From: Candidatus Zhuqueibacterota bacterium
Lineage (GTDB): Bacteria; Zhuqueibacterota; Zhuqueibacteria; Thermofontimicrobiales; Thermofontimicrobiaceae
Length of the DNA: 64,000 nt
NCBI GenBank assembly: GCA_016783825.1
Contig: JADHVV010000003.1
Span: 45 to 64,044 of the forward strand
Direction of reading: 5' to 3'
Shown here: piece by piece, positions 1 through 47,121 of the stretch
How positions within the stretch are numbered: position 1 is the stretch's first letter
Layout: every line of letters starts with the position of its first letter
Notes under the pieces: model-generated
Seen by the model: only the letters and a program-made list of their open reading frames with translations
The model's database searches: none
Told to the model about the DNA's origin: nothing
Made by a program: the position numbers and the translations under genes

Positions 1-1
1 A

Positions 2-352
2 GTTTGCAACGGCACGACTGGTCATGCTGAAGCGATGGAAGTTGTTTTCGACCCTTCAAAGACTAACTTTGAAAAATTAGCCAGATTGTTTTTTGAGATA
101 CACGATCCCACGCAAATTAATCATCAGGGGCCTGATATTGGCGAACAATATCGTTCGGCAATATTTTATATCGATGATGAACAGAAAAAAAATGCGGAAA
201 AATTAATCAATATTTTAGACGAAAAGGGATATAAAATAGCTACTGAAATAACTAAAGCCGATAAATTTTGGCAGGCTGAAGATAATCATCAGGATTATTA
301 TCAAAACAATGGCAAACGACCATATTGTCATGCATATACGAAAAGATTTTAA
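2..352 (+). CDS. msrA: peptide-methionine (S)-S-oxide reductase MsrA, N-terminus cut by window edge
   Basis: Frame is open from nt 2 (VCNGTTGHAEAMEVVFDP...). MsrA blocks GHAE..V.FDP, HDPTQ.N.QG.D.G.QYRSAIF and AED.HQ.Y are present. TAA at 350-352. Confidence 0.9.
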   Translation, partial: VCNGTTGHAEAMEVVFDPSKTNFEKLARLFFEIHDPTQINHQGPDIGEQYRSAIFYIDDEQKKNAEKLINILDEKGYKIATEITKADKFWQAEDNHQDYYQNNGKRPYCHAYTKRF

Positions 353-386
353 TATTCTAAAATAATAAAACTTTTAAGGAAATATA

Positions 387-1553
387 ATGAAATATCTGAT
401 TATCGGAAATGGAGTTGCTGGCGATGAAGCATCGATTATGATAGGAAAAAATGACGCAACTGCTGAAATAAAACTTATTTCAGAATCGATTAACTATTTT
501 TATTATAAACCAAAACTGATAAATTATCTGGCAAATGAAATCAGTTTGAATAAATTTACAATCCACAAAAAAGCATTTTATGAAAAAATGAATATTAAGA
601 ATATTCCCGGCACTAAAATTACTAAAATTAATCCTGATAAAAATATCGTTATTGCAGAAGATAAAACCGAATATGAATATGATAAATTACTGCTTGCAAC
701 CGGTTCAAGAGCTTTTATTCCTGCAATTAAAGGTGCAAATAAAAATGGCGTTTTTACAATCAGAGAAGTTGAAGATTGCGACAATATCCTTGAATATATC
801 AAAGATAAAAATAGTATTGTTGTTATTGGTGGCGGACTTTTGGGACTCGAGACCGCGAACAGTTTGAGAAGCTTAAATAAAAAAGTTACAGTTATCGAAT
901 ATTTCAGCACACTTCTTCCGCGACAACTTGATAATGATGGCGCAAATCTTTTAAAAAAAATGCTTGAAAAAAAAGGATTAAATTTTATTCTGCCTGGTAT
1001 TGTTGAAATAATTGAAGGGAAAGACAAAGTTGAAAAAGTTATTTTAAAATCGGGAAAGGAAATTAAAGCTGACGCGGTAATAGTTTCGGCCGGTATTCGC
1101 GGAAGAATCGAACTTGCACAAGATATTGGCATAAAAATCAATAAAGGCATTGTCGTAAATGATTTTATGCAAACTTCCGTAGAAAATATTTATAGCGCTG
1201 GCGATTCTGTTGAACATAATGGAAAACTTTATGGGATTTGGAAAGCATCAAAAGAACAGGGAAAAATTGCCGGTTTAAATATGGTCGGAATCAAAACGAA
1301 ATATAATGGAACTTTATTTTCAAATATTTTGAAAGTTACCGGAATAGATTTATATTCTGCTGGAAATTTTGATTCTAAAAATGGCGAAATATTAATTTCA
1401 AAAAATGGAAATGAATACATAAAATTTATAATTAAAAATAATCAACTAATTGGCGCAATCGTCTTAGGCAATGCAAATGCTGTAAAAATTGCATCAAAAG
1501 ATTTTGAAGGAAAGGCTTCGGTTGAAGAATTAAAAAATCTGTTTGATAGATGA
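387..1553 (+). CDS. FAD/NAD(P)-dependent pyridine-nucleotide-disulfide-family oxidoreductase, NADH:rubredoxin-oxidoreductase-like
   Basis: 388 aa. N-terminal dinucleotide fold IIGNGVAG, second fold VVIGGGLLGLE, plus ATGS and SAGD motifs of the NirB/rubredoxin-reductase branch. SD AAGGAA upstream. Sits in a rubrerythrin/desulfoferrodoxin neighbourhood. Confidence 0.75.
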   Translation: MKYLIIGNGVAGDEASIMIGKNDATAEIKLISESINYFYYKPKLINYLANEISLNKFTIHKKAFYEKMNIKNIPGTKITKINPDKNIVIAEDKTEYEYDKLLLATGSRAFIPAIKGANKNGVFTIREVEDCDNILEYIKDKNSIVVIGGGLLGLETANSLRSLNKKVTVIEYFSTLLPRQLDNDGANLLKKMLEKKGLNFILPGIVEIIEGKDKVEKVILKSGKEIKADAVIVSAGIRGRIELAQDIGIKINKGIVVNDFMQTSVENIYSAGDSVEHNGKLYGIWKASKEQGKIAGLNMVGIKTKYNGTLFSNILKVTGIDLYSAGNFDSKNGEILISKNGNEYIKFIIKNNQLIGAIVLGNANAVKIASKDFEGKASVEELKNLFDR

Positions 1554-1608
1554 CTCTGTTGAAAAAGTACCATCCCGAAGGTTTTATGAAACAGAAATAT
1601 CAATATAA

Positions 1609-1686
1609 GGAACTGAAGCGCCTGGTGTCTGTCCTGTTTGTGCACACCCACATGCACATTTTGAGCTGTTGAGGGAGAACTGGTAG
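1609..1686 (+). pseudogene. relic of a rubrerythrin 3' end (rubredoxin-like knuckle), no start codon
   Basis: Translates GTEAPGVCPVCAHPHAHFELLRENW*, compared with GTEALDVCPACAHSKAHFELLGENW* at the end of the intact rbr (5449-5526). In-frame TAA directly upstream (1606-1608). The first CxxC pair is not recognisable. Confidence 0.65.
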
Positions 1687-1755
1687 GAGATAAAATACAA
1701 TAACTTCCGGGCTCTCTAATTTAAAAATGAGATAAATAAGCGATGGAGGTATATC

Positions 1756-3042
1756 ATGGTAAAACAAATCTGTTTATTTGTATTAGTATTTACTTTTTTA
1801 TTAATATTTTTCAATAGCATCCTATTTTCCGATGATGAACCTTGTGTTCAATGCCACATCAAAATCAGTCCTGGTCAGGTAGCTGACTGGAGAACGAGTC
1901 AACATTTTGAAGAAGGTATTACCTGTTCAACGTGTCATGGTGAAGAACACAATAGCAAAGAAAACGTTAATCTTGTGCAATTCCCCGATGAGCATGTATG
2001 CGGTGAGTGCCATGATACGCAATTTGAACAATTCAAAAAAGGCAAACACAACTTCGGCTGGACGTCTTTGAATGCTTTGCCAGTAACTCATGTGGAGCCT
2101 GACGAGTTGATGGAAGGTGGCAGAGGTTGTGGCGGTTGTCATAATATGGGGATTAAAACCGAGGCACAAAAAAAGGAACTGCGGGAAAAAGGTTATCGCT
2201 ATCAAAACAATTCCTGTGATGAATGTCACACAAGACATAGTTTTTCAAAAAAGGAAGCTCAAGATCCACGAGCCTGCCAGCAATGCCACATGGGATATGA
2301 CCATCCACAGTGGGAGATGTGGAGCAGCGCCAAGCATGGCACTCGCTGGTTTGCCAAAGAAAATGGCAGACTACCTAAAGAAGCAGCAGCTCCAAGTTGT
2401 CAGAATTGCCACCTGCCTAACGGTACTCACGAAAATCGAACCGCGTGGGGATTTTTAGGGGTCAGGTTACCTTTGCCTGAAAATCCACAATGGGCTGCAG
2501 ACAGAATAACAATTTTGAAAGCGCTGGGAGTTTTGAATCCAGAGACAGGGAAGCCAACGCCACGCCTTGAGATTGTAAAAGCTGTAGATATGGCGCGCTT
2601 AACTGATGAAGCATGGCAAAAAGAGCGTGATAAAATGATTGAAACTTGTAACAAATGTCACTCAAAACTATACGCCCAGGAACAGCTTGAAATGGGCGAT
2701 GCGATAATGAAAAAAGCCGACCGACTATTAGCACAAGCCATTGATATCGTAGCCGACCTTTACAAAGACGACATCCTGAAAAAGCCTGACAATTATTCTT
2801 TTGCCTATCCCGACTTTCTTTATTTTATGAGAACTGGCAGTGGAAATCTAAAACAGGCATCCTATATTGAGCAGGTACTGTTTCAGATGTACATGAAACA
2901 CCGCATGAGAACTTACCAGGGATTTTTTCATGTAAATCCAGATTATGCCTATTGGTATGGCTGGGCAATGATGACAAAAGATCTTGGTGAGATTCGGGAA
3001 TTGGCTGAAACGATGCGGGTAACTTATAAATTAAAGAAATGA
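1756..3042 (+). CDS. octaheme c-type cytochrome, hydroxylamine-oxidoreductase (HAO) family-like, N-terminal signal/anchor
   Basis: 428 aa with eight CxxCH (CVQCH, CSTCH, CGECH, CGGCH, CDECH, CQQCH, CQNCH, CNKCH). Blocks CHTRHSFS...ACQQCHMGYDHPQWEMWSSAKHG and FHVNPDYAYWYGW are recalled as HAO-family signatures. Hydrophobic N-terminus. SD GGAGG. Confidence 0.7.
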   Translation: MVKQICLFVLVFTFLLIFFNSILFSDDEPCVQCHIKISPGQVADWRTSQHFEEGITCSTCHGEEHNSKENVNLVQFPDEHVCGECHDTQFEQFKKGKHNFGWTSLNALPVTHVEPDELMEGGRGCGGCHNMGIKTEAQKKELREKGYRYQNNSCDECHTRHSFSKKEAQDPRACQQCHMGYDHPQWEMWSSAKHGTRWFAKENGRLPKEAAAPSCQNCHLPNGTHENRTAWGFLGVRLPLPENPQWAADRITILKALGVLNPETGKPTPRLEIVKAVDMARLTDEAWQKERDKMIETCNKCHSKLYAQEQLEMGDAIMKKADRLLAQAIDIVADLYKDDILKKPDNYSFAYPDFLYFMRTGSGNLKQASYIEQVLFQMYMKHRMRTYQGFFHVNPDYAYWYGWAMMTKDLGEIRELAETMRVTYKLKK

Positions 3043-3096
3043 TTGCACTTTTTTGAGAAAAAATAATCACTGTTTCAATAATTTGGGAGAATTAAA

Positions 3097-3612
3097 ATGT
3101 CAAGTACTTCTTTAAAAGCATTAAGAACTGCAATTGAAGTGGAAGATAACGGTTTATTAACTTTCTTGAAATTCGCTCGTCAGACAAAAGACACGACGGG
3201 TAAGAACATGTTCATCCGATTAGCAATGGACGAATTTGAACATCGCCAAATTTTAGAAAAGCAGCTTAATAAGCTTTTAGAAGGCGGTGAATGGGAAAAT
3301 GTTGAAGTGCCAAAATCAGAAATAGAGATAATTTCTCCAACTATTCGAGAAAAACAACAGCGAACAAAAGGCGAATCTGGGATGGCGGAATTGGATGCCT
3401 TAAACACTGCCTTAGATTTAGAGAAAAAAACAGCAGAGTTTTTCAGAGAACAAGCAGACTTAGTCGATGAACCCGAAGCAAAATCTTTGTTTATAAGATT
3501 GGCAGAATGGGAAGATGCTCATTATGATATAATTCTGGCAGAACAGGATTCTATTAAGGGAACTGGATTCTGGTTCGGTATTCCTGAATTTCAAATGGAT
3601 GGGAAATTTTAG
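3097..3612 (+). CDS. rubrerythrin-family diiron four-helix-bundle protein without rubredoxin domain (erythrin-like), paralog 1
   Basis: 171 aa. Two E...ExxH ligand sets (EVED / DEFEH and LEKK / EWEDAH). SD GGGAG upstream. Confidence 0.75.
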   Translation: MSSTSLKALRTAIEVEDNGLLTFLKFARQTKDTTGKNMFIRLAMDEFEHRQILEKQLNKLLEGGEWENVEVPKSEIEIISPTIREKQQRTKGESGMAELDALNTALDLEKKTAEFFREQADLVDEPEAKSLFIRLAEWEDAHYDIILAEQDSIKGTGFWFGIPEFQMDGKF

Positions 3613-3681
3613 CTGGATTTTTCCAATTATTAATAATCTCTTAATTGAATAGCTACAATTTAAAAAATAAGGAGTATGAAA

Positions 3682-4179
3682 ATGGATGAAAAAAATATTG
3701 GTTTGTTGGAAGCAATCGAGGTTGCTCTAAAAGCTGAGAAAAAAGCAAATGAATTCTATCTCGATGCTTATGAAAAAGTAACTAACGAAAAAGGGAAAGA
3801 TTTGTTGAAACAACTGGCAGATTTTGAACAAAACCATTACGATAAATTAAATGAGCTTAAAAATTCATTAAAAGACAAAGGTGAATTTATTGAGTATGAA
3901 GGTACAGAATTTAGACCTTTTGTCGCAAAAAGCAGGGCAGAAATATCTGCTAAAATTGAACCTGACAAAGAAGACGTTCTTAACATTCTCAGTCTGGCGA
4001 TTGATGCCGAAACTAAAGCGCACGAGCATTATAAAAAAATGGCAGAAGAAACCACTGATGCCAAAGGTAAAGATATGTTTGAAAAATTGGCTGATGAAGA
4101 GACGATGCATCGCCGAATTTTGAGTGACGAATTTTATATGCTTAGTAATAAAGGCGGCATCTGGTTTTGGGGAGATTGA
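3682..4179 (+). CDS. rubrerythrin-family diiron protein (erythrin-like), paralog 2
   Basis: ATG 3682 lies 7 nt after AAGGAG; an in-frame ATG at 3676 is also possible. ExxH sets DFEQNH and DEETMH. Confidence 0.75.
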   Translation: MDEKNIGLLEAIEVALKAEKKANEFYLDAYEKVTNEKGKDLLKQLADFEQNHYDKLNELKNSLKDKGEFIEYEGTEFRPFVAKSRAEISAKIEPDKEDVLNILSLAIDAETKAHEHYKKMAEETTDAKGKDMFEKLADEETMHRRILSDEFYMLSNKGGIWFWGD

Positions 4180-4180
4180 T

Positions 4181-4320
4181 GCTGGATTATGGTTGCTGGA
4201 TATTGGTTTTTTATTGCTGGATTTTGGATTGTTGATTACTTAGATTTGATTTCCATGATTATCAAGCATCAAGTATCCAGTATCAAATATCGAGCATCCA
4301 GTATCAAATTTCCAGTAATT
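4181..4320. repeat. long imperfect hairpin built from tandem words (GCTGGAT-type arm vs ATCCAGT-type arm) after the stop of the preceding gene
   Basis: Left arm gctggattatggttgctggatattgg...ttgctggattttggatt. Right arm gtatccagtatcaaatatcgagcatccagtatcaaatttccag. The arms are complementary if G-U pairs are allowed. Confidence 0.5.
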
Positions 4321-4359
4321 GACTTTATTATGAAAAACAAAAAAACAGGAGATATTCAA

Positions 4360-4824
4360 ATGGCAGAGCAATCACTTACATTCAAAGATGCAATTAAAGT
4401 CGCAATTAAAGAAGAGATTAAGGCGTATAATTTGTATATGGAAACAAGTAAAAAAGTGTCTGGCTCTGGTACAAAAAAGATGCTCGAAGAACTGGCTGAA
4501 ATGGAGAAGGGGCATCGTAAGCTTTTGGAAGGAGTTATTGAAAGGCAAAAATCAGATATACTGGGCAAGAATATCCCCAGACAGAGTCCAGGGATAGCAG
4601 ATTTTTTAGTTGAAGTTGAATTAAAACAAAATGCTACTCCACAGGATGTGATGATCTTTGCCATGAAAGCAGAAGAAAAAGCATTTAATTTTTACACAGA
4701 ATTGAAAGGACAGTTTTCAGGAACTGAATTAGAAAACTTATTTAATAGTTTGGTAGAGGAAGAAAAAGGTCATAAAATTAAGCTGGAAAATGAATATGAT
4801 GAATATATTTTGCGGGAAAATTAA
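4360..4824 (+). CDS. rubrerythrin-family diiron protein (erythrin-like), paralog 3
   Basis: ATG 4360 is preceded by AGGAG. ExxH sets EMEKGH and EEEKGH. The track ORF start at 4189 only reads through the hairpin repeat. Confidence 0.7.
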   Translation: MAEQSLTFKDAIKVAIKEEIKAYNLYMETSKKVSGSGTKKMLEELAEMEKGHRKLLEGVIERQKSDILGKNIPRQSPGIADFLVEVELKQNATPQDVMIFAMKAEEKAFNFYTELKGQFSGTELENLFNSLVEEEKGHKIKLENEYDEYILREN

Positions 4825-4953
4825 TTTGCTACTAATCATTATTTGTTATAGTACCTGAATGGTATTCTTGAAAAAATGTCAGCAACAACAATGAATGAAT
4901 ATATAATTAAAAATAATAGTAAATATTTTAATTAAACAATTGGAGGTTTAATT

Positions 4954-5526
4954 ATGAATTTAAAAGGAACAAAAACAGAAAAAAATATTTTAACAGCATT
5001 TGCAGGAGAATCACAAGCAAGAAATCGTTATTCCTACTTTGCCAGCAAGGCAAAGAAAGAAGGTTTTGTGCAGATTGCAGCTATTTTTGAGGAAACTGCT
5101 AACCATGAAAAGGAACATGCCAAACGCTTGTTCAAGTTGCTTGTAGGAGGAGAAGTAGAAGTTCAAGCCGCTTTTCCTGCTGGTATAATTGGCTCTACTG
5201 CGGAAAATTTAAAAGCCTCTGCGGGCGGTGAAAATCATGAATGGACAGAGATGTATCCATCGTTTGCCAACGTGGCTCGGGAAGAAGGTTTTGAAAATAT
5301 TGCTGAAATATTTGAAGCCATCGCCGTTGCAGAAAAACAACATGAGAAACGTTATCTCGATTTGATAAAAAACATTGAAGATGGCACAGTATTTAAAAAG
5401 GATAAAAAAGTTGTATGGCGCTGTCGTAATTGCGGCTATTTACACGAAGGAACTGAAGCGCTTGATGTCTGTCCCGCTTGCGCTCATTCAAAGGCGCATT
5501 TTGAGCTGTTGGGTGAAAACTGGTAG
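4954..5526 (+). CDS. rbr: rubrerythrin
   Basis: 190 aa. Diiron bundle (ETANHEKEH, GGENHEW, AEKQHEKRY) plus C-terminal rubredoxin-like CRNC...CPAC. SD GGAGG. Confidence 0.92.
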   Translation: MNLKGTKTEKNILTAFAGESQARNRYSYFASKAKKEGFVQIAAIFEETANHEKEHAKRLFKLLVGGEVEVQAAFPAGIIGSTAENLKASAGGENHEWTEMYPSFANVAREEGFENIAEIFEAIAVAEKQHEKRYLDLIKNIEDGTVFKKDKKVVWRCRNCGYLHEGTEALDVCPACAHSKAHFELLGENW

Positions 5527-5577
5527 GTTTGCTTTTTGCGGATTGAAGATTTTGAATTTAACCAAGGAGGTAAAATT

Positions 5578-6288
5578 ATGAGTGATAAACCAATAGGCTG
5601 TGCCAGACCAACTGGAGGTCCAGTAGGGACTAAACCAGTCAAAGAAAAAACAAATGAACAAAACTTTGAATTGAAAAAGGAGAAAATTATGGTTGAAGTA
5701 AAAGTTGGGCAAAAAGCCCCAGATTTTGAGTCGTCAGCTTTTTACAAAGGCGAATTCAAGAATATTAAACTTTCTGATTATCTTGGCAAATGGGTTATCC
5801 TGTGTTTTTATCCTGGCGACTTTACATTTGTCTGACCAACCGAGTTAGCGACAGTTGCCGCTAATTACGATAAGCTGCAAAAGTTAGGCGTTGAAGTATT
5901 AGCAATGAGTGTTGACAGTATGTTTGTCCATAAGATATGGCAGGAAGAAGAATTATCTAAAATGGTCAAGCGTGGCGTTCCTTATCCCATGCTTTCTGAT
6001 GGCGCTGGCAAAGTAGGAAAAGTTTACGGTGTTTACGATGAAGCCGCAGGGGTTGATATTCGAGGAAGGTTTTTAATTGACCCCGATGGCGTGGTTCAGG
6101 CAATGGAAGTAATGACTCCGCCAGTGGGAAGAAATATCAAAGAGTTGATTCGTCAGATTGAAGCGTTTCAGCATGTTAGAAAATCTAAAGGTTCTGAAGC
6201 CTGTCCTGCAGGATGGGAACCTGGAAAACCAACTCTTAAACCAGGACCTGCTTTAGTGGGTAAGGTTTGGGAAGAATGGAAACCGTAA
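5578..6288 (+). CDS. typical 2-Cys peroxiredoxin (AhpC/Prx1 type) with TGA (5833-5835) at the peroxidatic Cys position; candidate selenocysteine protein
   Basis: Track ORFs 5536-5835 and 5905-6288 share one frame. The joined sequence reads ...[10 protein letters not shown][TGA]PTELATV..., matching the invariant FTFVCPTE. The resolving Cys EACPAGW is present. Two SD-preceded starts: 5578 (AAGGAGG) and 5689 (AGGAG). Confidence 0.8.
5843..5866 (+). promoter_or_regulatory. candidate bacterial SECIS stem-loop
   Basis: AGTTAGCG (5843-5850) pairs with CGCTAATT (5859-5866), including one G-U pair. The 8-nt loop ACAGTTGC has a GU about 21 nt 3' of the UGA. Confidence 0.5.
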
Positions 6289-6296
6289 AAAAAAAA

Positions 6297-6393
6297 TGGA
6301 GTAATGGATAGATGGATTAATCGAGTGATGGATGAGTGGAGTATTGGATTAATGGAGTGATAATAACTCATTTTTTCAATACTCCAGCAATCC
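6297..6393. repeat. word-built hairpin (TGGAGT/TGGATT words) after the prx stop
   Basis: The 64-nt C-free arm tggagtaatggatagatggattaatcgagtgatggatgagtggagtattggattaatggagtga contains seven GGA. It is partly complementary to actcattttttcaatactccagcaatcc. Confidence 0.5.
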
Positions 6394-6462
6394 GTTTAAG
6401 TTAATATTTATCAAAATAATGAAAAAGTAGTAAAATTTAACGATCGTTTTGAGAGGTAAATT

Positions 6463-6975
6463 ATGATATCAGAAAAAATGACTGAAAAATTAAATGACCA
6501 AATCAAGCATGAGTTGTATTCCGGTCATCTCTATTTATCAATGGCAGCCTATTGCGCTTCCATTGACCTTGATGGATTTTCAAATTTTTTTGTTGTTCAG
6601 GAGCAAGAAGAACGTTTTCATGCGATGAAATTTTTTCATTATATTGTTGAACAAGATAAAGATGTTAAAATTTTCGGACTTGATCAACCAGAGACTGAAT
6701 TTGATTCACTGGAAGCTGTAATTGATGCTGCATGGAAACATGAACAGAAAGTAACTAAAAGATTATATGACTTAATGAATTTAGCAAATGAGGAAAAAGA
6801 TTTTGCCACGCAAAGCCTTTTGAAATGGTTTATTGATGAACAGGTTGAAGAGGAAGCATCAATGTTAGGGCTGTTAAAGAAAGTAAAGTTAGTAGGCGAT
6901 AAAGGACAAGGCATTTTTATGTTGGATAAGGAGTTAGCCGAGAGAACATTTGCTCCTCCTGCGGCTGAAAAGTAA
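6463..6975 (+). CDS. ftn: non-heme ferritin
   Basis: 170 aa. Ferritin-like ELYSGHLYLSMAAY, QEQEERFHAMKF and KHEQKVT blocks. Confidence 0.9.
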   Translation: MISEKMTEKLNDQIKHELYSGHLYLSMAAYCASIDLDGFSNFFVVQEQEERFHAMKFFHYIVEQDKDVKIFGLDQPETEFDSLEAVIDAAWKHEQKVTKRLYDLMNLANEEKDFATQSLLKWFIDEQVEEEASMLGLLKKVKLVGDKGQGIFMLDKELAERTFAPPAAEK

Positions 6976-6998
6976 AGATAGCAGTTTTTGAAACTCAA

Positions 6999-7220
6999 CT
7001 AAAGTTCATTGAATTCATCAATTGTGAGATTAGCCTGCTTAATTAATTTTGATAAAAGTCCAATGCCAAGTTCCTTGTGTTGAAGAATAGATAAAGTGTA
7101 GGGATAGTCTGGTTTTGTCATCATAACATGAGAGCCTTTTTTACGAGATAATGTCCATCCGGCTCTTTGGAATTTTCTAACAACTGTGGTGCCAGAACAA
7201 ATCTTTATCCTGGGACTCAT
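6999..7220 (-). CDS. hicA: HicA-family mRNA interferase toxin
   Basis: 73 aa with the GSH...KP motif (RKKGSHVMMTKPD). Overlaps the upstream hicB by 4 nt. Confidence 0.85.
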   Translation of the reverse strand: MSPRIKICSGTTVVRKFQRAGWTLSRKKGSHVMMTKPDYPYTLSILQHKELGIGLLSKLIKQANLTIDEFNEL

Positions 7221-7426
7221 ACGAGTTCCTCGTACACTTCATGGACATTTTTATGTTGGGATTCCATTTTGTCATTCATAACATCAAACCAACCGGCAAT
7301 AGCTTCTTTGATGTTTTCTTTGGCTTCCGCTATTGTTTTACCTTGTGATAGACAACCTGGTAATGCGGGAGCTTCGGCAAAATAATAACCGGTTTCGTCT
7401 TTTTCAATGATGATTTTGAGTTTCAT
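7217..7426 (-). CDS. hicB: HicB-family antitoxin (UPF0150 fold)
   Basis: 69 aa. GYYFAEAPALPGCLSQGKTIAEAKENIKEAI is typical of HicB N-domains. Confidence 0.8.
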   Translation of the reverse strand: MKLKIIIEKDETGYYFAEAPALPGCLSQGKTIAEAKENIKEAIAGWFDVMNDKMESQHKNVHEVYEELV

Positions 7427-7518
7427 AATATTGCTCCGATATTAAATGATTAGCACAATAATATAATAAAGTTAAATCTCAAAAACAATAAAATATTTTT
7501 GAAATAAGGAGATTCATC

Positions 7519-7893
7519 ATGACAAAAATAAATCAAGTTTACAAGTGCGAAGTGTGTGGAAACATAGTTGAAGTTCTGCACACTGGAGCCGGCGAGTTAG
7601 TGTGCTGCAATCAACCAATGAATTTGTTGGAAGCAAATACCACAGATGCTGCAACAGAAAAGCATGTCCCTGTGATTGAAAAATCTGGTGATACAGTCAC
7701 AGTAAAAGTAGGGAGTGTTGACCATCCCATGTTGGATGAACATTATATTGAGTTCATTGAATTGATAGCTGATGGTCAGGTTTATCGAAAAGCTTTAAAA
7801 CCAGGCGACGCACCCGAAGCGACATTTAAAGTAAGTGCTGAAAACGTAGAAGCGCGTGCTTATTGTAACTTACATGGTTTGTGGAAAGCGTAG
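7519..7893 (+). CDS. dfx: desulfoferrodoxin (2Fe superoxide reductase)
   Basis: 124 aa. N-terminal desulforedoxin CEVCGN...CCNQPM and EKHVP SOR centre with C-terminal CNLHGLW. Confidence 0.9.
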
Positions 7894-8180
7894 TGCCCAA
7901 AATTTAAAGTTATGTTTATTACTAGGGCAAATTACTAAGGTAGTGTCAAAAGTTTTATGAAAAAATGAAAATTACCCCACGATACAATAAACGGCAAATG
8001 CAATGGGGGATGCGTATTCAGCCTTTCCCTTGCGCTGTCCAATAGCTAAATTGGGGGGAGAAAAATATATTGTGAGGGAGAATTTGTATGAAACCTTTAT
8101 TCATGGGGTGTTCATCAAAAAAAATCATAAAAAATGTCGAGAATTTTTGGCACTACCAAACTTTATAAGGAGAATAAACC

Positions 8181-9647
8181 ATGAAAGACGAAAAGAAGAA
8201 GTTGACCACCAATGCAGGCGCTCCCGTACCTGACAATCAGAATGTGATGACTGCTGGGCCTCGCGGCCCGCAGTTGCTGCAAGATGTCTGGTTCTTGGAA
8301 AAACTTGCCCACTTTGATCGTGAGGTCATCCCTGAGAGGCGCATGCATGCCAAGGGGTCTGGGGCGTATGGAACCTTCACCGTTACTCATGACATCACCC
8401 GCTACACCAAGGCAAAGATTTTCTCTGAGATTGGAAAGAAGACCGAACTTTTCACACGTTTCTCAACGGTGGCAGGTGAGCGCGGAGCGGCAGACGCGGA
8501 GCGTGATATCCGTGGATTTGCCATGAAATTCTACACTGAAGAGGGTAACTGGGACCTGGTGGGTAATAACACGCCCGTCTTCTTCCTGCGCGATCCACTC
8601 AAGTTCCCTGACCTTAACCACGCAGTGAAGCGAGATCCCCGAACAAACCTGCGTAGCGCCCGCAATAACTGGGACTTCTGGACATCACTGCCGGAGGCGT
8701 TACACCAAATCACAATAACCATGAGTGACCGCGGTATTCCTTACTCTTATCGCCACATGCACGGCTTTGGAAGTCATACCTTTAGCCTCATCAATGCCCA
8801 AAATGAACGGTACTGGGTGAAGTTCCATTTTGTCAGCCAACAGGGCATCAAGAACCTAACAGATGCCGAGGCCGAGGCCACCATAGGTAAGTGCCGGGAA
8901 AGCCACCAACGCGACCTCTATGAAAGCATTGAGAAGAAGGACTTTCCGAAGTGGAAGCTTTTCATCCAAGTAATGCCGGAGAAGGAAACCGCCAACTGCC
9001 CGTACAATCCATTTGACCTGACAAAGGTATGGCTCCGCAAGGACTACCCGCTAATTGAGGTCGGTATTTTGGAGCTGAATCGCAACCCCGAAAACTATTT
9101 TGCTGAGGTCGAACAGTCCGCCTTCAACCCGGCCAATATCGTCCCTGGTATTGGTTTTTCACCCGATAAAATGTTACAGGGCCGTCTGTTCTCGTACGGT
9201 GATGCTCAGCGTTATCGGCTTGGTGTGAACCACCACCTGATTCCGGTCAACGCATCGCGCTGCCCCTTCCACAGTTACCACCGCGATGGAGCCATGCGAG
9301 TCGACGGCAACCATAGCGGCACTCTCGGTTATGAGCCAAACAGCTACGGTGAGTGGGAACAACAGCCAGGCTTTTCAGAACCACCTATTAGCCTGGACGG
9401 AGCTGCCGATCATTGGAACCATCGTGATGACGACGATTACTACACCCAGCCCGGCTTGCTTTTCCGACTGATGAGCCCTGAACAGAAAGAAGCGCTCTTC
9501 GCCAATACCGCCCGTGCCATGGGCGATGCTCCCGAGGAGATTAAGATCCGCCATATCGGCAACTGCAAGAATGCCGATCCGGCTTATGGAAAGGGCGTGG
9601 CCGACGCTTTGGGCATTTTATTTGACGATGTACCCAGAGAGTCATGA
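8181..9647 (+). CDS. katA: monofunctional heme catalase
   Basis: 488 aa. FDRE.IPER..HAKG.GA.G.F, RFSTV.GE.G.AD..RD.RGFA.KFYT and VGNNTPVFF blocks. Visibly higher GC than its neighbours. Confidence 0.95.
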
Positions 9648-9670
9648 AGCAAGCAGCTAACAAACAAATT

Positions 9671-9697
9671 CAGCGGACGCAAAAAGCCGCGCCGCTG
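9671..9697 (+). terminator. GC-rich hairpin after the catalase gene
   Basis: cagcgg(a)cgc-aaaaagcc-gcgccgctg followed by attt. The U-tract is weak. Confidence 0.4.
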
Positions 9698-9818
9698 ATT
9701 TGGGTTAGAAGTACACCAAAGTATAAGCTAATAACTACTTCTATTTTAGCTCACTTTAGGTTATTACACTTTAGAGCACTTCAAACTTTAGGCATTTTCA
9801 TGTTTTTGTAATTTGCTT

Positions 9819-9840
9819 CTGGCTTGTCCAGATTAGGAAA
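9819..9840. repeat. solo copy of a 22-nt motif related to the MITE family A terminus
   Basis: ctggcttgtccagattaggaaa matches 52521-52542 at 21/22 positions and resembles the cttagtcagattagga end at 17465-17480. Confidence 0.45.
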
Positions 9841-9889
9841 TAAATATAAATCATATTAACTTATAACTTAAAATTAGGAGAATCAGTAA

Positions 9890-10438
9890 ATGAAAAAATT
9901 CGTATGTTCAGTATGTGGTTATGTACACGAAGGTGATGCCCCACCGGAAAAATGTCCCCAGTGCGGCGCACCAGCAGATAAATTTTATGAGCAAAAAGCT
10001 GGAGAATTGAATTGGGCAGATGAGCATAAGATAGGCGTTGCAAAAGGCGTTGATCCTGATGTTGTTGAAGGTCTCAAAATGAATTTTACAGGTGAATGCG
10101 CAGAAGTTGGCATGTATCTTGCGATGAGCCGTCAGGCAGATAGAGAAGGTTATCCTGAAGTAGCAGAAGCTTATAAAAGAATCGCCTGGGAAGAAGCAGA
10201 ACATGCTTCAAAATTTGCTGAATTATTAGGCGAAGTTGTGGTAGCAGATACCAAGACAAACCTGAAAATGCGAGTCGATGCTGAATTTGGTGCTTGTCAG
10301 GGTAAAAAGGATTTAGCGACAAAAGCAAAACAATTAAATTACGATGCTATTCATGACACAGTTCATGAAATGTGTAAAGATGAAGCGCGTCATGGCGCTG
10401 CTTTTGCCGGACTTTTGAAACGCTATTTCGGTGAATAG
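9890..10438 (+). CDS. reverse rubrerythrin (N-terminal rubredoxin-like domain + diiron bundle)
   Basis: 182 aa. N-terminal CSVCGY...CPQCG, then EC.E..MYLAM and EEAEHA, DEARHG ligand motifs. Confidence 0.85.
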
Positions 10439-10456
10439 ATTGGTAAAGGAATAATT

Positions 10457-11224
10457 ATGAACGAAAATCTTGGCATTGCGTTACTGCTAACCACCGGAGC
10501 CGGACTTGCTACGACGATTGGGAGTTTGATAGGTTTAGCAGTGCGCAAACCAGGACCCAAGTTTATGGGATTTACGCTCGGTTTTTCTGCCGGTGTGATG
10601 ATCCTGGTTTCTTTTGTTGAGTTGCTGCAAGGGAGCGTTGAGTCCATCGGATTTTTATCTGCTCACCTGGCATTTTTTCTTGGTATGATAAGTTTTTTCC
10701 TGATTGATACACTGATACCTCATGATTACATCGGTCAGTATGACCACAAGATATGCGAATCAGATCATGGATTGAAGCGTACCGGCATGCTCATCGCATT
10801 AGGCATTGGAGTTCATAATTTCCCTGAAGGTTTAGCAACTTTTGCCGGCGCGCTTGAGGATGTTCATCTTGGAATCGCAATTGCAGTAGCCATAGCTATC
10901 CACAATATTCCGGAAGGACTGGCAGTTTCTGCGCCTATTTACGCAGCAACCGGTAGTCGTAAAAAAGCATTTTTCTGGTCATTTCTCTCTGGTGTGAGTG
11001 AACCAATTGGCGCGGGTCTGGCAGCGCTTGTGCTTTTGCCTTTTTTAACAACAGTAGTTGTTGGTTGGCTGCTTGCAGCGGTTGCCGGGATAATGATTGC
11101 TATTTCACTCGATGAAATAATACCCGTAGCAAAAACTTTTGGAGGTGAGCATTCGCACGTACCTATACTCGGTATTATCACTGGTATGTTTGTAATGGCG
11201 GTCAGTCTGTGGTTACTGAATTGA
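10457..11224 (+). CDS. zupT: ZIP-family zinc transporter ZupT
   Basis: 255 aa, multi-TM, with HNFPEGLA and HNIPEGLAV motifs. Confidence 0.9.
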   Translation: MNENLGIALLLTTGAGLATTIGSLIGLAVRKPGPKFMGFTLGFSAGVMILVSFVELLQGSVESIGFLSAHLAFFLGMISFFLIDTLIPHDYIGQYDHKICESDHGLKRTGMLIALGIGVHNFPEGLATFAGALEDVHLGIAIAVAIAIHNIPEGLAVSAPIYAATGSRKKAFFWSFLSGVSEPIGAGLAALVLLPFLTTVVVGWLLAAVAGIMIAISLDEIIPVAKTFGGEHSHVPILGIITGMFVMAVSLWLLN

Positions 11225-11349
11225 TATAATATCAGATCTATACATAAAGAAAAAATATAGACAAAATTATGGATGACAAAATGATAGTTTATCAAGACAT
11301 TTAGTAACATTTCACCATTTGTGTTATTCATTATTTTGATATCAGAACA

Positions 11350-11458
11350 ATGATTAACGATTTACGATTTTAGAAGTATTGTTGATATTTTCAATCAAAT
11401 TTTATAATTCAACGTTCCTTCATAAATCAAAAATCGTTAATCTTTATTCGTAAATCAT
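11350..11458. repeat. word-built hairpin (GATTAACGATTTACGA words) downstream of zupT
   Basis: atgattaacgatttacgatttt (11350-11371) vs aaaaatcgttaatctttattcgtaaatcat (11429-11458). Confidence 0.5.
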
Positions 11459-11647
11459 CTTTTTAGAAAAAAATGTTAGGGAGGTGAACTATTACGACAT
11501 TTATTTTTTTGTCGTCCATTATTTTGTCTTTTGATGTGAATTGTAGTTACCAAATCATTTGAACAATTAACAATTCAGGAATGGGATGAATAAATTATCG
11601 AATTACACATCCTATCTTTTTAACTACATTTAAGAAAAAAGGAAAGT

Positions 11648-12997
11648 ATGATGAAAAATTCAATTTTGTCTGTTATTATTCTTTTCTGTCTATCCACTTT
11701 AATCTTCTCTCAAGATTTACCAGGGGGCGAAGAAGCACTTGGTACAAAAAAATACGAACAATATGAAAAACCTGAAGCTTGCAAAAGCTGTCACCCTGAT
11801 ATTTACCAGCAGTGGACGCAAGCAATGATGTCACAGGCTTATACGCACCATTGGGACGAAATTGAATATTTTGATCTGGCAGTTGAACATGGAAAGGTCG
11901 ATCCCAAGTTTGCCCCTGTTGCTGACGGTTGCAATGGATGCCATACTCCCATTGCATTTCTATCGGGTGATGTACCGCCTCCGAGACCTTCTGAAAACTC
12001 AAGGGCTAATGAAAGTGTGAGCTGCGATGTGTGCCACACAATAAAAAGCTTTAAGGGTGATGAACCATTTAATTTCAGTTACATCTCCCAACCAGGCAGG
12101 TTAAAATGGGGGAATAAACCCGGATTAACATCTCCCCATCACGACACAGAAGAAAGCGATTTTATGAAACAAGCTGAATTTTGCGGGAACTGCCACAATG
12201 AAAAAGATCCCTTTGGCATTTGGGTAAAGTCAACCCATTTGGAGTGGAAAGAAGGACCTTATGCAAAGCAGGGCGTTCCCTGTCATCAGTGCCACATGCC
12301 AAAAGCCTGGGGGAAGAACGCCACCATGGCTGAAAAAAGTATGGTCTCCCAACACCTGTTTCACGGGGGACATGATGCAGGTAAAGTTGCCGGTACCATC
12401 GAATTGCGAATGCACCCCGAAGAAAGAGAAGTGGAATATGACGGAACCATTGTTTTAAAAGTTCAACTTTTTAACGGAAAAACCGGGCATAAATTCCCCA
12501 CTGGTTCTGTTGAAGATCGAATTGTTTGGCTACATGTCACTGCGACAGATGCAAATGGAAAAGAGTACCATCTGCCGGTGGATAAAAAAGGATTTGATGG
12601 GGAAGAGTACACCATCGCAGCCGATGTGTTAGCTTACCAGGATATGGGAATCCCCAAGCGTGATCCAAATTTCAAAGGGGTGCAAAGGGATGGTGTGCCA
12701 TTTGGAGACCGAATTTTTCGAATGCCCTATTTTGATCCCCAGGGCAGAATGACCATTATGCAATGGAATACGGCTTCACTGGGAGTTGATTATCGTTTCG
12801 GACCGCGGGAAACAAAAATTGAAACTTTTAGCTGGGTATTACCGGGTGATATCCCGGAAGGGAAAGTCAACTTTAAGGCAAAGCTATTTTATCAATTACT
12901 CGTTAAACCGGTTGGTGATTATCTTGGTGTCCCGGAAGAAGAAACAACACCAATCTTGGTGAATTCAGCTTCGACCTGGGTTGAGATTTACGAATAA
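11648..12997 (+). CDS. secreted pentaheme c-type cytochrome
   Basis: 449 aa with a signal peptide. Five CxxCH (CKSCH, CNGCH, CDVCH, CGNCH, CHQCH). The C-terminal half is non-heme (GHKFPTGSVEDR...). Confidence 0.75.
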   Translation: MMKNSILSVIILFCLSTLIFSQDLPGGEEALGTKKYEQYEKPEACKSCHPDIYQQWTQAMMSQAYTHHWDEIEYFDLAVEHGKVDPKFAPVADGCNGCHTPIAFLSGDVPPPRPSENSRANESVSCDVCHTIKSFKGDEPFNFSYISQPGRLKWGNKPGLTSPHHDTEESDFMKQAEFCGNCHNEKDPFGIWVKSTHLEWKEGPYAKQGVPCHQCHMPKAWGKNATMAEKSMVSQHLFHGGHDAGKVAGTIELRMHPEEREVEYDGTIVLKVQLFNGKTGHKFPTGSVEDRIVWLHVTATDANGKEYHLPVDKKGFDGEEYTIAADVLAYQDMGIPKRDPNFKGVQRDGVPFGDRIFRMPYFDPQGRMTIMQWNTASLGVDYRFGPRETKIETFSWVLPGDIPEGKVNFKAKLFYQLLVKPVGDYLGVPEEETTPILVNSASTWVEIYE

Positions 12998-24692: not shown

Positions 24693-27690
24693 TTATTTCT
24701 CTGATAATTTTGAGTAACGTGCTTTCGCATCAATCAATTCCGGTAAATCTTTGTCCGCATCTTTCCAGATGTCCAAAAATTTCTCGTACTCTGTTATTGC
24801 TTTTTGTGTTGCGCCTTTTTCTTCGTACAATTTGGCTAACCGGTAATGATATTTGGGATGAATGAGTAACCGCTCTTTGCTATCTGGGTCAAACGTGATC
24901 AACTGCTCGTATTCGGCGATGGCTTTGTCGATGTTTCCCATTTTGACATAAATCCTGGCTGAATAATCTTTAAGGAAAGGTACATTGTATGATCCTAAAT
25001 CGCCTAAATCCATTTGTGGCGTTGGTATTGTTGTTTTATTCCACAAATGCATTGCTTCTTCAAGCGAACCGTGTGATAATAATAGTTCTGTAGATAATAT
25101 GTTATAATCGGATAATATGCTATTATTATAGAATTGCCCCGATACTTCTAATTGGGCTTTTGGTAATAGAGATTTTATCTCGGTCAATTTCATCTTTACG
25201 GAATCAATTTTTCCCTCATTTAAGTCTATTAGGCCAGTAAAGTAATTGTATCCAATTTTGTGGGAAAATATCCATGATCCATATCGAAGCCTTAATTCGT
25301 ACATTTTGGTGAATGCTTTTCGGCTGGAGTTGTAATCGCCCGATTCAAGATAAATCCACCCAAGTGTCCAATTTACCCAGTCGATGGCATCAAAATTCTC
25401 AACCTTTTCTGCCAAATCTTCTAACCTGTATAGCTCGCTCAAAGATAGGTCAATTTTACCAAGCCAGCTATGATAAAACGCTTTCCACCATAAACCCTCA
25501 CCCAGTGGGCCGGTAGACCTGGCCCTATTGATATAATTGTTAATCCATTTCATCGCTTCAGCGTAATCTTCTTTCATCGCATAAATATAGGCAATCTTCC
25601 AATTTGAGCGAAATTCAGGTTTAATCTTCAGCGCTTCCTGATAGTTTATAATGGCATCATCAAAATGTCCGATTTGAAAATAGAGATCACCCAGTCGATC
25701 AAATGAATTCGCATTTCCGGGAGCGGCTGATGCGTATCGCTTTAGATTATCGATGGCCTTTTCAAAATCACACATACGAACATAGGTAAAAGTGAGCTGT
25801 TCGTAGGCCCATCCAAATTGGGGATCAAGCTCCAATGTCTTGTTGAACTCAGCAATAGCTTCGGAATAAAGTTCTTTCGCTTTGTAATCAAAACCTAACC
25901 ACAAGTGAGGGAATTTCTCCTTTGGGTATTTTTTCACCATCTGACGTAAGATGCGTAATGCTTGTTCTCGATTCTTCTCTATACCCCAAATGTAATAAGC
26001 ATCAATTAATAAACGCTCTTTGTTCGGCGCCTTGTATGAAAGCGCTTTAGCCTTTTCAAAAGCTTCTTGTGCTCCTTTTTCATCCCTTAAGAAATTATTA
26101 GCAAGACCAAGATACCACTGTGCTATCGCAAATGTTGAATCGAGTTGGACTGCTTTCTCAAGAGACACCTTAGCGTCTTCATGATTTGAGTGTCCCAACT
26201 CTGTAATACCCATGATATAATGCTGATAAGCCTCCATGGAATTTGTTGTGACTTCTGCAACTAGCTTTTGTGTAATTGCTATTTTGCGTTCAGAGAGACC
26301 AACTCCTTGTGCAATGTCCCTGCTCAATTCATCAATCTGGTTCTGTAAAATACTGCCGACGCCCTCTCCCTGTGAGCTGGCACTTTTAAGAAGTCGTTTT
26401 GACGCAACATCCAGCACCTTCACATCTGTGGCAAATTGTTCACCCGCTTTTATGAAACTGCCCAAAACGATAGTGGCGATTCCTTCCATGCGGCACAGCT
26501 CAAAGCCCAGCTCTTCGTCTATTGTCTCAATGCTGTCATGCCCAATTTGTTTGAGGAGATCAAACATCCTCTGCCAGGTGGTCACGTGAAAGTAGTTGGA
26601 CTGTTCAAGACTAGTAATCAACAGGTTAGGTATGGCTTTTTGCAGATAGTCAAATGATTTGTCCCCAGTCTGATTTTCAAAATTTATCACTGCAATTGGA
26701 ATGGGATCTGATATCTCTGTCTGTTTCAAGAAGAGTGGTCTGAGAATAAGAAATACAACAGCTAATAATGTTATTATCCCGGCCGGTATCATAATTCTCA
26801 TGAACGACTTTTTCTTGGATTTCCTTTCTATAATTTTAGAAGTCTGAGGTCTTGCAGCAGTCTCCATCTCCTTTTTTAGATTCTTCAAATCACTTAACAT
26901 TTCATCTATATGCTGGTAGCGTTCATTGGAATTTTTCGTTAACGCCTTATGTGTGATCCGCCTTAATTCTTTTGCACATCTGTACGCAAGCCAGTCATCG
27001 GTTCGGGATCTACATTCAAAATGGAATACACCACTGCGTGCTCGTATTCACCTTTAAAAGGAAGATAACCGGTAAGCATTTCGTACAAAACGACACCGAG
27101 CGACCAGATATCTGTACGAGAATCCATGGATTCACCCATCAACTGTTCCGGTGACATGTAAGCAATGGTGCCGGGAGTTTCTCCGTCCTTTGTTATTTTT
27201 GGAGTATCAGATCTTTGCGCTAGTCCAAAATCGATGATCTTAACTTCACCATGTTTGGTTACAATAATGTTGGCTGGTTTAATATCGCGGTGTGTGATCC
27301 CTGCTTCGTGAGCCTTGGATAAACCATTTATCATTTGAGTTGTTATATCTATTGTTTTTTCAATTGGTAATGATCCATGCTCAAGTCTATCTGTGAGAGT
27401 TTCCCCATCATAATAAGCCATAACTATAAACATTTGGTTGTTCCCTGGCTCCCCTGGGATTTCATCAAATTCATAAATAACACCAATATTAGGATGATCC
27501 AGCGAAGAGGCAGTTTTGGCTTCATGTATGAACCGTTTTTTCTCTCCTTATCCGAACTGAAATAATGAGGTAGAAACTTGATGGCGACGAAGCGGTCAAG
27601 TTTTAAATCTCGCGCTTTATAGACAACGCCCATCCCGCCTTCGCCGAGTTTTTCGATAATCTTGTAATGTGAAATGGTTTTTCCAATCAT
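24693..27690 (-). pseudogene. Ser/Thr protein kinase - TM - TPR protein, frame broken twice (or two homopolymer sequencing errors)
   Basis: N-terminus [26 protein letters not shown]. The kinase sequence continues in the +1 frame after the T6 run 27536-27541 ([18 protein letters not shown]...). A second shift lies at about 26970-26976 (LRTDV|PKELRRITHKAL..RYQ). A TM helix and many TPRs follow. Confidence 0.8.
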
Positions 27691-27698
27691 TAGTAAGC

Positions 27699-27785
27699 TC
27701 TCTTTATTAATTTACGGCGGGACAGGTTCCCGCCTTGGCCTAGTTTTTCAAGTATTCTGTAATGTGAAATTACTTTGCCAATCAT
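27699..27785 (-). pseudogene. second kinase 5' relic (MIGKVISHYRILEKLGQGG) fused to the shared junction sequence
   Basis: ATG 27785; 19 kinase-like codons end inside the P-loop codons. The sequence then reads aacctgtcccgccgtaaattaataaagaga immediately before the start of the next kinase. Confidence 0.45.
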
Positions 27786-27789
27786 TATA

Positions 27790-40195: not shown

Positions 40196-40212
40196 TTTGT
40201 GCCTCAAAAAAT

Positions 40213-44100: not shown

Positions 44101-44213
44101 AAAGGAGTGATGGAGTATTAGAGAAATGGATCGTCCGCCGGCTGGCGGAGATGCGACTCGTCGCATTATTTAAATGCAAGCTCCATTACTCCAACACTCC
44201 ATTACTCCCTTTT
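44101..44213. repeat. three-way palindromic element downstream of the permease gene
   Basis: Outer arms aaaggagtgatggagtattagagaaatgga / gctccattactccaacactccattactcccttt enclose two GC hairpins: tccgcc-ggct-ggcgga and atgcga-ctcg-tcgcat. Confidence 0.55.
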
Positions 44214-45462: not shown

Positions 45463-46170
45463 TTATTTTAATAGAAAGTAAATACCACCAAGTATAACCA
45501 AAACACCGCATACTCTTCGTAAGATAAAAGCGCCGTCTGTCTTTTCTGTCCAGTTCAAATATTTTTGAACTTTTTCAGTGAGAGTTCCTGCCAGCACAAT
45601 CACCGAACAATGTCCGATACCAAATGCTGCCAGCAACGCAATAGCAAAAACAAGCTGCTTTGCGGCAACCTGAAAAACAACTCCCAACATCGGCGCCATA
45701 AATGCGAATGTACAAGGACCAAGTCCAATACCAAACAGCAATCCCAAAATCAGCGCGGCTAGCCATCCTTTTTGTTTGATACTGCTGCTGGCGAAACCGC
45801 CCCAATCCAGTTTGATAATGTCCAACAAATATAATCCCACAACAACAAATATTAATGCGACCAGGTAATTTCCAATATTTCCCACATCTCCCATTAATCT
45901 GCCAAGTGATGCAGTAATTAACCCGATTGCTGCGATGGTAATTAAAATCCCCAGAGCAAATACCAGTGAAATAAAAAACGCTCGTTTAATTGAAATGCGT
46001 CCCTGTTTATCGATAAATCCAATAATTAAAGGAATACTTGCGAGATGGCACGGGCTTAATAATATGCTTAAAATTCCCCAAAGCAATGCTGCTGTGATAG
46101 CGATTGCCGGATTTCCCTGAACTGCATTTGTTAGCCATGTAAACAAATCCGTTAGCATGAAAGCTCCCAA
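45463..46170 (-). CDS. ccdA: CcdA/DsbD-family thiol:disulfide electron-transfer membrane protein
   Basis: 235 aa, 6 TM. Conserved Cys in LSPCHL and GPCTF. Confidence 0.85.
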   Translation of the reverse strand: MGAFMLTDLFTWLTNAVQGNPAIAITAALLWGILSILLSPCHLASIPLIIGFIDKQGRISIKRAFFISLVFALGILITIAAIGLITASLGRLMGDVGNIGNYLVALIFVVVGLYLLDIIKLDWGGFASSSIKQKGWLAALILGLLFGIGLGPCTFAFMAPMLGVVFQVAAKQLVFAIALLAAFGIGHCSVIVLAGTLTEKVQKYLNWTEKTDGAFILRRVCGVLVILGGIYFLLK

Positions 46171-46623: not shown

Positions 46624-46631
46624 ATTAAATG

Positions 46632-46871: not shown

Positions 46872-46888
46872 AATCAAACCTCCCATAT

Positions 46889-47107: not shown

Positions 47108-47121
47108 TATAGAAATTATTA

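Follow-up and report, generated by a model that had tools for sequence, protein, structure and literature searches.

A predicted PrxU-type selenoperoxiredoxin gene with an in-frame UGA and a downstream SECIS-like hairpin in a Candidatus Zhuqueibacterota contig

A single TGA interrupts a peroxiredoxin reading frame

We analyzed a 64,000-nucleotide (nt) stretch of contig JADHVV010000003.1 from a Candidatus Zhuqueibacterota bacterium, hereafter called the window, and in particular the peroxiredoxin (Prx) gene, prxU, at positions 5578 to 6288 of its + strand. This gene very probably encodes a PrxU-type selenoperoxiredoxin of the AhpC/Prx1 subfamily, in which the UGA at 5833-5835 is decoded as selenocysteine (Sec). 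A preliminary description of the sequence had noted two open reading frames (ORFs), 5536-5835 and 5905-6288, lying in one frame and separated only by this TGA, and every one of these coordinates held. Read through, the long form of the coding sequence extends from the ATG at 5578 to the TAA at 6286-6288 and comprises 236 codons. The TGA coincides with the peroxidatic Cys codon of the PxxxTxxC motif (context PGDFTFV[TGA]PTE). The predicted Sec, at the peroxidatic position of PGDFTFVU, would be residue 86 of the long form and residue 49 of a putative short form described below.

For profile searches, a Cys was put in place of the TGA-encoded residue. The substituted product matched Pfam AhpC-TSA (E = 6.8e-39) and 1-cysPrx_C (E = 2.4e-8); together with the translation, the former match bears out the earlier claim that the TGA replaces the peroxidatic Cys of an AhpC/Prx1-type protein. 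Furthermore, the product scored 410.8 bits (E = 1.8e-123) against NCBIfam NF040737 ("peroxi_PrxU"), which has a curated equivalog cut-off of 270, and the alignment paired residues 6-235 with profile positions 2-230 of 233, N-terminal arm included. From this score and this span, the gene belongs to the curated PrxU family, and its N-terminal extension is part of the family model. This is in agreement with the known class of Sec-peroxiredoxins (the PrxU type of Eubacterium acidaminophilum) to which the preliminary description had referred.

The top matches among solved structures were all typical 2-Cys Prx or AhpC proteins (AhpC, 1YEP and 1WE0; human Prx2, 1QMV; plant BAS1, 5ZTE), with E values of ~1e-46 over residues 40-230 only. 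With these proteins the window product shares the PxxxTxx[C/U] motif, Arg162 in RGRF, which is invariant among the homologues, and the C-terminal CP motif with the resolving Cys. The latter, whose retention (SEACPAGW) had been pointed out before, is Cys209, encoded by codon 209 at 6202-6204 (EACPAGW). The active-site motif, the conserved Arg, and the C-terminal resolving Cys are those that define the typical 2-Cys AhpC/Prx1 subfamily. Unlike these proteins, the window product has a predicted Sec for the peroxidatic Cys and an extra 37-amino-acid (aa) arm with a conserved Cys. It also carries a clade-specific Cys at position -10, with LCFYP instead of LFFYP; this residue, Cys76 (5803-5805), lies ten residues before the Sec and is a hallmark of the clade.

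The TGA is conserved across phyla and followed by codons under purifying selection

The DNA-level set consisted of one locus reached from a database protein (L001, from P0018) and 32 close loci found in a scan of species-representative genomes (L002 to L033; 55-82% identity). In all 33, the peroxidatic codon is TGA, with open frames on either side. These loci are spread over Calditrichota, Thermodesulfobacteriota, Chloroflexota, Spirochaetes, Planctomycetota, Synergistota, Firmicutes, and other phyla. In contrast, each of 48 more distant Prx loci (41-51% identity) has TGC or TGT at that codon. The alignment to Cys-containing orthologues that the preliminary description had proposed as a check places the TGA in register with TGC/TGT.

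The closest relative, L002, is a locus in a Calditrichaceae metagenome-assembled genome with 82% identity. Over the 149 codons past the TGA, the two genes have 65 identical codons, 59 with synonymous changes, and 25 with nonsynonymous changes. Purifying selection thus acts on the codons after the TGA, and since the changes are so rich in synonymous ones, the region beyond the TGA, including the stretch between it and the next ATG at 5905, behaves like translated sequence.

At the protein level, the nearest database entries were 60-76% identical to the window protein. Among the 120 best (P0001 to P0120), the catalytic residue was given as W in 83 and as G in 1. For P0018, the W corresponds to a TGA in the DNA (locus L001) that the gene caller had translated under an alternative code (code 4); this is the one protein for which the artefact was verified on DNA. 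The W and G residues at the catalytic site of the database proteins probably go back to in-frame TGA codons, most of them on short contigs, that were read with code 4 or 25. Mistranslation to Trp or Gly would then be a systematic artefact that hides a large and phylogenetically broad Sec-Prx clade.

A covarying hairpin follows the TGA

The hairpin reported previously (AGTTAGCG, 5843-5850, with CGCTAATT, 5859-5866) was found again at the same coordinates, beginning 7 nt past the TGA. Its apex had been described as an 8-nt loop, ACAGUUGC, placing a GU about 21 nt from the UGA. Comparison with the 33 homologues favors a tetraloop, AGUU, over the 8-nt loop. The candidate selenocysteine insertion sequence (SECIS) hairpin accordingly spans 5843-5866 (+), with the stem 5843-5852/5857-5866, an A5851 x C5858 mismatch, and the tetraloop AGUU at 5853-5856, which is closed by C5852-G5857 and exposes G5854 and U5855. 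The comparative data indicate that this tetraloop, and not the 8-nt loop, is most likely the functional apex. The G-U lies at +22/+23 counted from the U of UGA, approximately 19 nt past the UGA, and 17 nt separate the UGA from the tetraloop.

Folding of the TGA region, also proposed in the preliminary description, did yield the hairpin, but the energy signal taken alone was modest. The minimum free energy (MFE) was -10.2 kcal/mol for 5841-5870 (z = -3.1; 2 of 200 shuffles as stable) and -11.4 kcal/mol for 5833-5885 (z = -2.06). The tetraloop structure is 0.6 kcal/mol less stable than the MFE fold (-9.6 versus -10.2 kcal/mol). The MFE fold shows the 8-nt loop because a Thr codon (ACA) creates the A x C mismatch below the closing C-G pair; L005 and L022 have the mismatch in the same way.

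We looked for covariation in 34 Sec genes, aligned without gaps over 48 nt beginning with the TGA; the stem occupies columns 11-20/25-34 and the tetraloop columns 21-24. Paired cells amounted to 78.9%, compared to 66.6% in shuffles, and the covariation score was 0.371, compared to 0.138; neither observed value was reached in any of 500 shuffles, and 3' partners slid out of register scored at most 0.156. Six pairs change on both sides, synonymous third positions among them. Pair 15-30 occurs as GC (10), UA (8), AU (7), and CG (5), pair 16-29 as UA (18), GC (9), and AU (2), and pair 18-27 as GC (23) and AU (10). Third codon positions are columns 15, 18, 21, 24, 27, and 30, and the compensations are synonymous where the residue is constant (e.g., Ala at 27 and Val at 24), so that protein constraints do not explain them. 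Columns 21 and 24, the first and the last of the loop, covary as well (AU in 18 genes and GC in 16). Indeed, the loop is AGUU in 18 of the 34 genes and GGUC in the other 16, always with G-U in the center.

Such an NGUN' loop, in which N and N' are complementary, was thus present in 34/34 Sec genes, compared to 3/7 of the close Cys-form genes (Fisher p = 3.5e-4). The stem pairs were retained at a mean of 5.0 out of 7 in these close Cys forms (L082 to L088) and 2.7 out of 7 in the distant Cys Prx. Partial SECIS-like hairpins in Cys forms fit a recent interconversion of Sec and Cys within the clade. Two individual Cys forms may be mentioned here: L086 has all 7 stem pairs with a GAUC loop, and L088 has 6 of 7 pairs with a GGUC loop.

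We compared the hairpin with the constraints on bacterial SECIS elements, namely, the bSECISearch consensus of Zhang and Gladyshev (2005) as far as it is summarized in PMC13188914: a loop of 3-9 nt, an upper stem of 4-16 bp, a spacing of 16-37 nt, an MFE of at most -7.5 kcal/mol, and an apical loop that has, among its first two nucleotides, a G with G or U as the next base. The spacing of 17 nt, the energy of -9.6 to -10.2 kcal/mol, and the stem 5843-5852/5857-5866 all fall within these limits. Only the comparative tetraloop AGUU has its G followed by U at the prescribed place; the 8-nt loop of the MFE fold would not. Taken together, these features argue that the hairpin at 5843-5866 is a SECIS kept by selection, and SelB is predicted to bind it.

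Like the E. coli fdhF-type SECIS, the window hairpin is located inside the coding region directly 3' of the UGA and has an apical G followed by U. It differs in that its G-U is at +22/+23 rather than +23/+24, in that it is an AGUU variant whose closing pair sits on an A x C mismatch, and in having no Rfam model. About half of the clade resembles fdhF more closely in the sense that the loop is GGUC, the apical loop of the fdhF element (G22 G23 U24 C25), in which G23 and U24 contact SelB.

The suggestion of a candidate selenoperoxiredoxin has therefore gained support from the NF040737 score, the conservation of the TGA, and the covariation of the hairpin. The preliminary description had also named the opposite case, relatives split at this point and lacking a conserved hairpin; what we found was the TGA in 33/33 loci and a hairpin conserved with covariation.

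Sec-decoding genes were not found in the window

Several observations weigh against a Sec-decoding prxU. Within the 64-kb window, no selA, selB, selD, or tRNA-Sec (selC) gene was detected. The search used the Pfam and NCBIfam profiles on the Prx read-through product and on 52 of the 54 ORFs with 90 aa or more, and ARAGORN for tRNA genes; ARAGORN found no tRNA of any kind in the 64 kb. A screen of the window for TGAs flanked by long open stretches gave no other selenoprotein gene. The thermodynamic signal of the hairpin by itself is modest (z = -2.1 to -3.1), and the A x C mismatch adjoins the loop-closing pair. Finally, Rfam gave no match, either for the whole window at gathering thresholds or in a permissive local scan of 5780-5930. 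The ability of the organism to decode Sec, and with it the insertion of Sec at UGA 5833-5835, is therefore a prediction. The remaining uncertainty is the Sec machinery.

Other explanations of the TGA

One alternative is that prxU is a pseudogene that lost its peroxidatic Cys codon to a nonsense mutation, with a hairpin present by chance. In formal terms, a conserved gene with an internal TGA does have a premature stop, and the Sec machinery was not seen in the window. However, close homologues in many phyla have the identical TGA (33/33), selection continues past it (59 synonymous versus 25 nonsynonymous changes), the hairpin covaries, and a strain variant differing by five single-nucleotide polymorphisms (SNPs) keeps both the frame and the TGA (see below). 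We regard the pseudogene explanation as very improbable and effectively refuted.

Just as improbable, in our judgment, is that UGA is reassigned or read through without selenium, either under code 4 or 25 (Trp or Gly) or by near-cognate read-through. This would match the W or G that gene callers assigned to the site in many homologues. We checked the genetic code on the 54 window ORFs of at least 90 aa, which end in TAA (30), TGA (12), and TAG (12) and use TGG 270 times. Because TGA terminates 12 of these 54 ordinary ORFs, the code is standard, and Trp is encoded by TGG. Moreover, the residue aligned with the site is the catalytic Cys, and an enzyme with Trp or Gly in its place would be inactive. 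A SelB-type hairpin is also conserved directly downstream.

If the true codon were TGC or TGT, a single wrong base in sequencing or assembly would account for the TGA. However, three independent metagenome scaffolds from ENA, L089 (ERZ24794672), L090 (ERZ24794647), and L091 (ERZ24794679), contain this locus with 99.8-99.9% identity and a stated coverage of 25-65x, and the TGA is present in each of them. Over the gene, L089 and L091 do not differ, whereas L090 represents a distinct strain with five SNPs, four of them synonymous and one causing I74V. Since three independent assemblies, including that of the SNP-bearing strain, agree, and since TGA and SECIS occur throughout the clade, an error is very unlikely, to a degree that leaves it hardly worth entertaining.

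Equally negligible is the notion of two polypeptides, an N-terminal one of 85 aa that stops at the TGA and another of 127 aa that is initiated at ATG 5905. Automatic annotation does split the locus in this manner (85 aa and 122 aa in L089 to L091). Against it, we note that the 23 codons from the TGA to 5905 are conserved at the protein level in all homologues, that a Shine-Dalgarno sequence before 5905 is not evident, and that we know of no precedent for a Prx fold split at the active-site helix.

Several independent lines of evidence thus speak against each of the pseudogene, alternative-code, sequencing-error, and split-gene explanations. For annotation, a UGA decoded as Sec means that the locus should be entered as a single 236-aa selenoprotein and not as two fragments.

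A conserved N-terminal arm and two start codons

The preliminary description had left open whether the 37-aa N-terminal extension was real. It is conserved across phyla and lies inside the PrxU model, which settles the question in its favor. The two in-frame starts, 5578 and 5689, are each preceded by a Shine-Dalgarno sequence, as had been claimed. The long-isoform start consists of AAGGAGG at 5564-5570 and the ATG at 5578 (5564-5580, +). In homologous loci, the long start is preceded by a Shine-Dalgarno sequence too and lies 7-8 codons ahead of a conserved Cys. In the window, the arm motif covers residues 7-17 (5596-5628, +), with Cys8 at 5599-5601, and is joined by a Lys/Glu-rich linker reaching to residue 37.

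Approximately 30 of the 33 Sec loci and most of the long database proteins have this arm, which reads Met, 5-8 residues, and (V)GC(A/V)(R/K)P(T/A)(G/K)GP(V/I)G, followed by a linker of 20-30 residues rich in Lys, Glu, Pro, and Gln. The arm peptide of the window is identical in 8 loci, some of them in other phyla, although its codons vary synonymously, with Arg specified by 6 different codons. Because one identical peptide is encoded by many synonymous codons, selection acts on the arm peptide. The closest relative, L002, is devoid of the arm and has a Fur/PerR-like gene upstream in its place. An AlphaFold2 model of a Cys-form homologue (P0101) was confident in the core, whereas the first 20 residues had predicted local distance difference test (pLDDT) scores of 56-62 and the linker (residues 20-34) did not reach 50; the low score of the modeled linker is consistent with disorder.

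The internal start consists of AAGGAG at 5677-5682 and the ATG at 5689 (5677-5691, +). This is the canonical Prx start, from which a putative short isoform of 199 aa would be made. The ATG is conserved, and its Shine-Dalgarno sequence sits inside the coding sequence of the linker. Across 32 loci, 56 GGAG/GAGG motifs were found at -7 to -18 of the internal ATG (two 6-nt bins), compared to 1-10 in every other bin. Additionally, the Glu codons in the Shine-Dalgarno zone were GAG in 34 cases and GAA in 11; outside this zone, the counts were 191 GAG and 217 GAA (Fisher p = 2.5e-4). These biases point to nucleotide-level selection on the internal Shine-Dalgarno sequence. Judged from the two initiation signals, both isoforms are probably made, the 236-aa form from ATG 5578 and the 199-aa form from ATG 5689. 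The purified E. acidaminophilum protein reportedly has about 203 aa, which matches the short form. In a literature search, we found no paper on the N-terminal arm of PrxU or on dual initiation.

Cysteines of the clade and a proposed catalytic cycle

A Cys at position -10 from the Sec was present in 32/33 Sec loci and 7/7 close Cys forms, compared to 4/48 distant Prx. Most members of the clade, on the other hand, have another residue in place of the C-terminal resolving Cys, as a rule Thr but in some cases Met or Ala, so that the window copy, which keeps the Cys, differs from the clade at large.

We propose the following cycle, in which the recoding of the UGA through the hairpin and the Sec in place of the peroxidatic Cys are supported by the comparisons above and the later steps are based on the established chemistry of Prx1/AhpC enzymes. 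In the mRNA, the hairpin at 5843-5866, whose AGUU tetraloop exposes G-U, would recruit SelB together with GTP and Sec-tRNA(Sec), and the UGA at 5833-5835 would be decoded during translation as Sec86 in place of the peroxidatic Cys. Sec86 would then attack H2O2 or organic hydroperoxides and be converted to the selenenic acid (Sec-SeOH), with which a resolving thiol would form a selenenylsulfide. A thioredoxin-type reductant would finally recycle the enzyme; the NCBI name of the family is "thioredoxin-dependent peroxiredoxin." The resolving thiol would most simply be Cys209 of the partner subunit, with Cys8 on the flexible N-terminal arm as an alternative. Because the window protein keeps Cys209, unlike most of the clade, an ordinary intersubunit 2-Cys cycle is the simplest reading. 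In clade members without the C-terminal Cys, Cys8 or Cys76 could be the partner thiol.

We also considered whether the arm Cys stands in for the lost C-terminal resolving Cys, but the co-occurrence of the two did not support this idea: L020 and L030 have neither, and the window protein and L024 have both.

A bolder proposal, which we consider doubtful, is that PrxU is not an ordinary 2-Cys Prx and that the arm Cys would serve as a tethered resolving thiol or electron shuttle, somewhat like the mobile Cys-Sec tail of mammalian thioredoxin reductase, with mixed oligomers of long and short forms tuning recycling. In favor of it, the C-terminal Cys has mostly been lost in the clade while the arm Cys and the Cys at position -10 have been gained, and the arm is under protein-level and the internal Shine-Dalgarno sequence under nucleotide-level selection, the latter two giving partial support. 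However, whether a protein has the arm shows no correlation with whether its C-terminal Cys is lost. If anything in this gene might lead somewhere new, namely, into the recycling of PrxU, it is the conserved Cys arm and the conserved internal start.

Relation to known Sec-peroxiredoxins and genomic context

The features that the predicted window protein shares with PrxU of E. acidaminophilum are a Sec in place of the peroxidatic Cys, the TxxU motif of the AhpC/Prx1 type, an anaerobic host, and an oxidative-stress context, while the host lineage is different. Sec-Prx proteins (TxxU) belong to the prokaryotic selenoproteins with experimental verification (Sohling et al. 2001, as cited in PMC13188914), and a count from 2006 already had them in a dozen genomes (PMC1794560). 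The prxU gene described here is thus a further case in a curated selenoprotein family known experimentally since 2001 and will not surprise a specialist. If correct, it means that an uncultured anaerobe decodes Sec and uses selenium in peroxide defense.

The prxU gene is part of an oxidative-stress cluster that takes up approximately the first 11.2 kb of the window, with every gene on the + strand. It comprises genes for MsrA (cut by the window edge), an NADH:rubredoxin-reductase-like flavoprotein, a multihaem cytochrome, four rubrerythrin-family ORFs, PrxU, a ferritin, a desulfoferrodoxin, a catalase, a reverse rubrerythrin, and a ZIP transporter. Several window proteins have sorting domains of the type IX secretion system. 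Taken by themselves, these domains and the best PrxU match, in a Calditrichaceae genome, would make the host probably an anaerobe of the Calditrichota. Compared with window positions 1-12228, the three ENA scaffolds share one end point, which lies within msrA and 44 nt upstream of the window start. A 100-N gap follows the match to window position 6935 in L089 and L090, and L091 ends at that point. An exact look-up of the window ferritin ORF in public sequences gave no match because the public scaffolds have the 100-N gap there.

The window part of the msrA gene (1-352) is cut off ahead of the catalytic Cys; MsrA is a known selenoprotein family, and this gene may encode a second selenoprotein. 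In the screen for further selenoprotein genes, the only candidate in a gene-free gap was the TGA at 46908-46910 (- strand), which we rejected as an ordinary stop upstream of a small thioredoxin-like ORF with a CxxC motif. This 79-aa thioredoxin/glutaredoxin-like ORF (MTIKILGTGCAKC..., 46632-46871, -) is below the 90-aa filter. It is surrounded by a metal and arsenic resistance cluster (44275-50271) encoding a SaoE/SO_0444-like permease, a DsbD/ArsG-like protein, a thioredoxin, a CDF transporter, ACR3, and ArsR.

Directly after the prxU stop (region 6295-6396), four tandem copies of a 16-nt unit, ATGGATTAATGGAGTG, occupy 6296-6361 and are overlapped by a strong hairpin at approximately 6327-6396. 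Folding of 6286-6400 gave -32.5 kcal/mol (z = -4.9; 0 of 200 shuffles as stable). Elsewhere in the window, the repeat unit has one match only, with 2 mismatches, at 44195-44210 (-). This repeat and hairpin could be a terminator, a repetitive extragenic palindromic (REP)-like element, or a regulatory RNA.

Two further loci are worth recording. At 26963-30124 (-), two pieces of Ser/Thr kinase flank a TolB-like beta-propeller ORF (27790-29259). The piece at 29285-30124 is a full kinase domain, whereas that at 26963-27433 matches positions 83-237 of the PknB profile only and may be truncated or frameshifted. At 38228-40207 (-), a 659-aa ORF has a C-terminal domain of the FGE (formylglycine-generating enzyme)-sulfatase type and gave weak, sub-cut-off matches to EgtB (ergothioneine; E = 5e-27) and SenA (selenoneine synthase; E = 4e-25).

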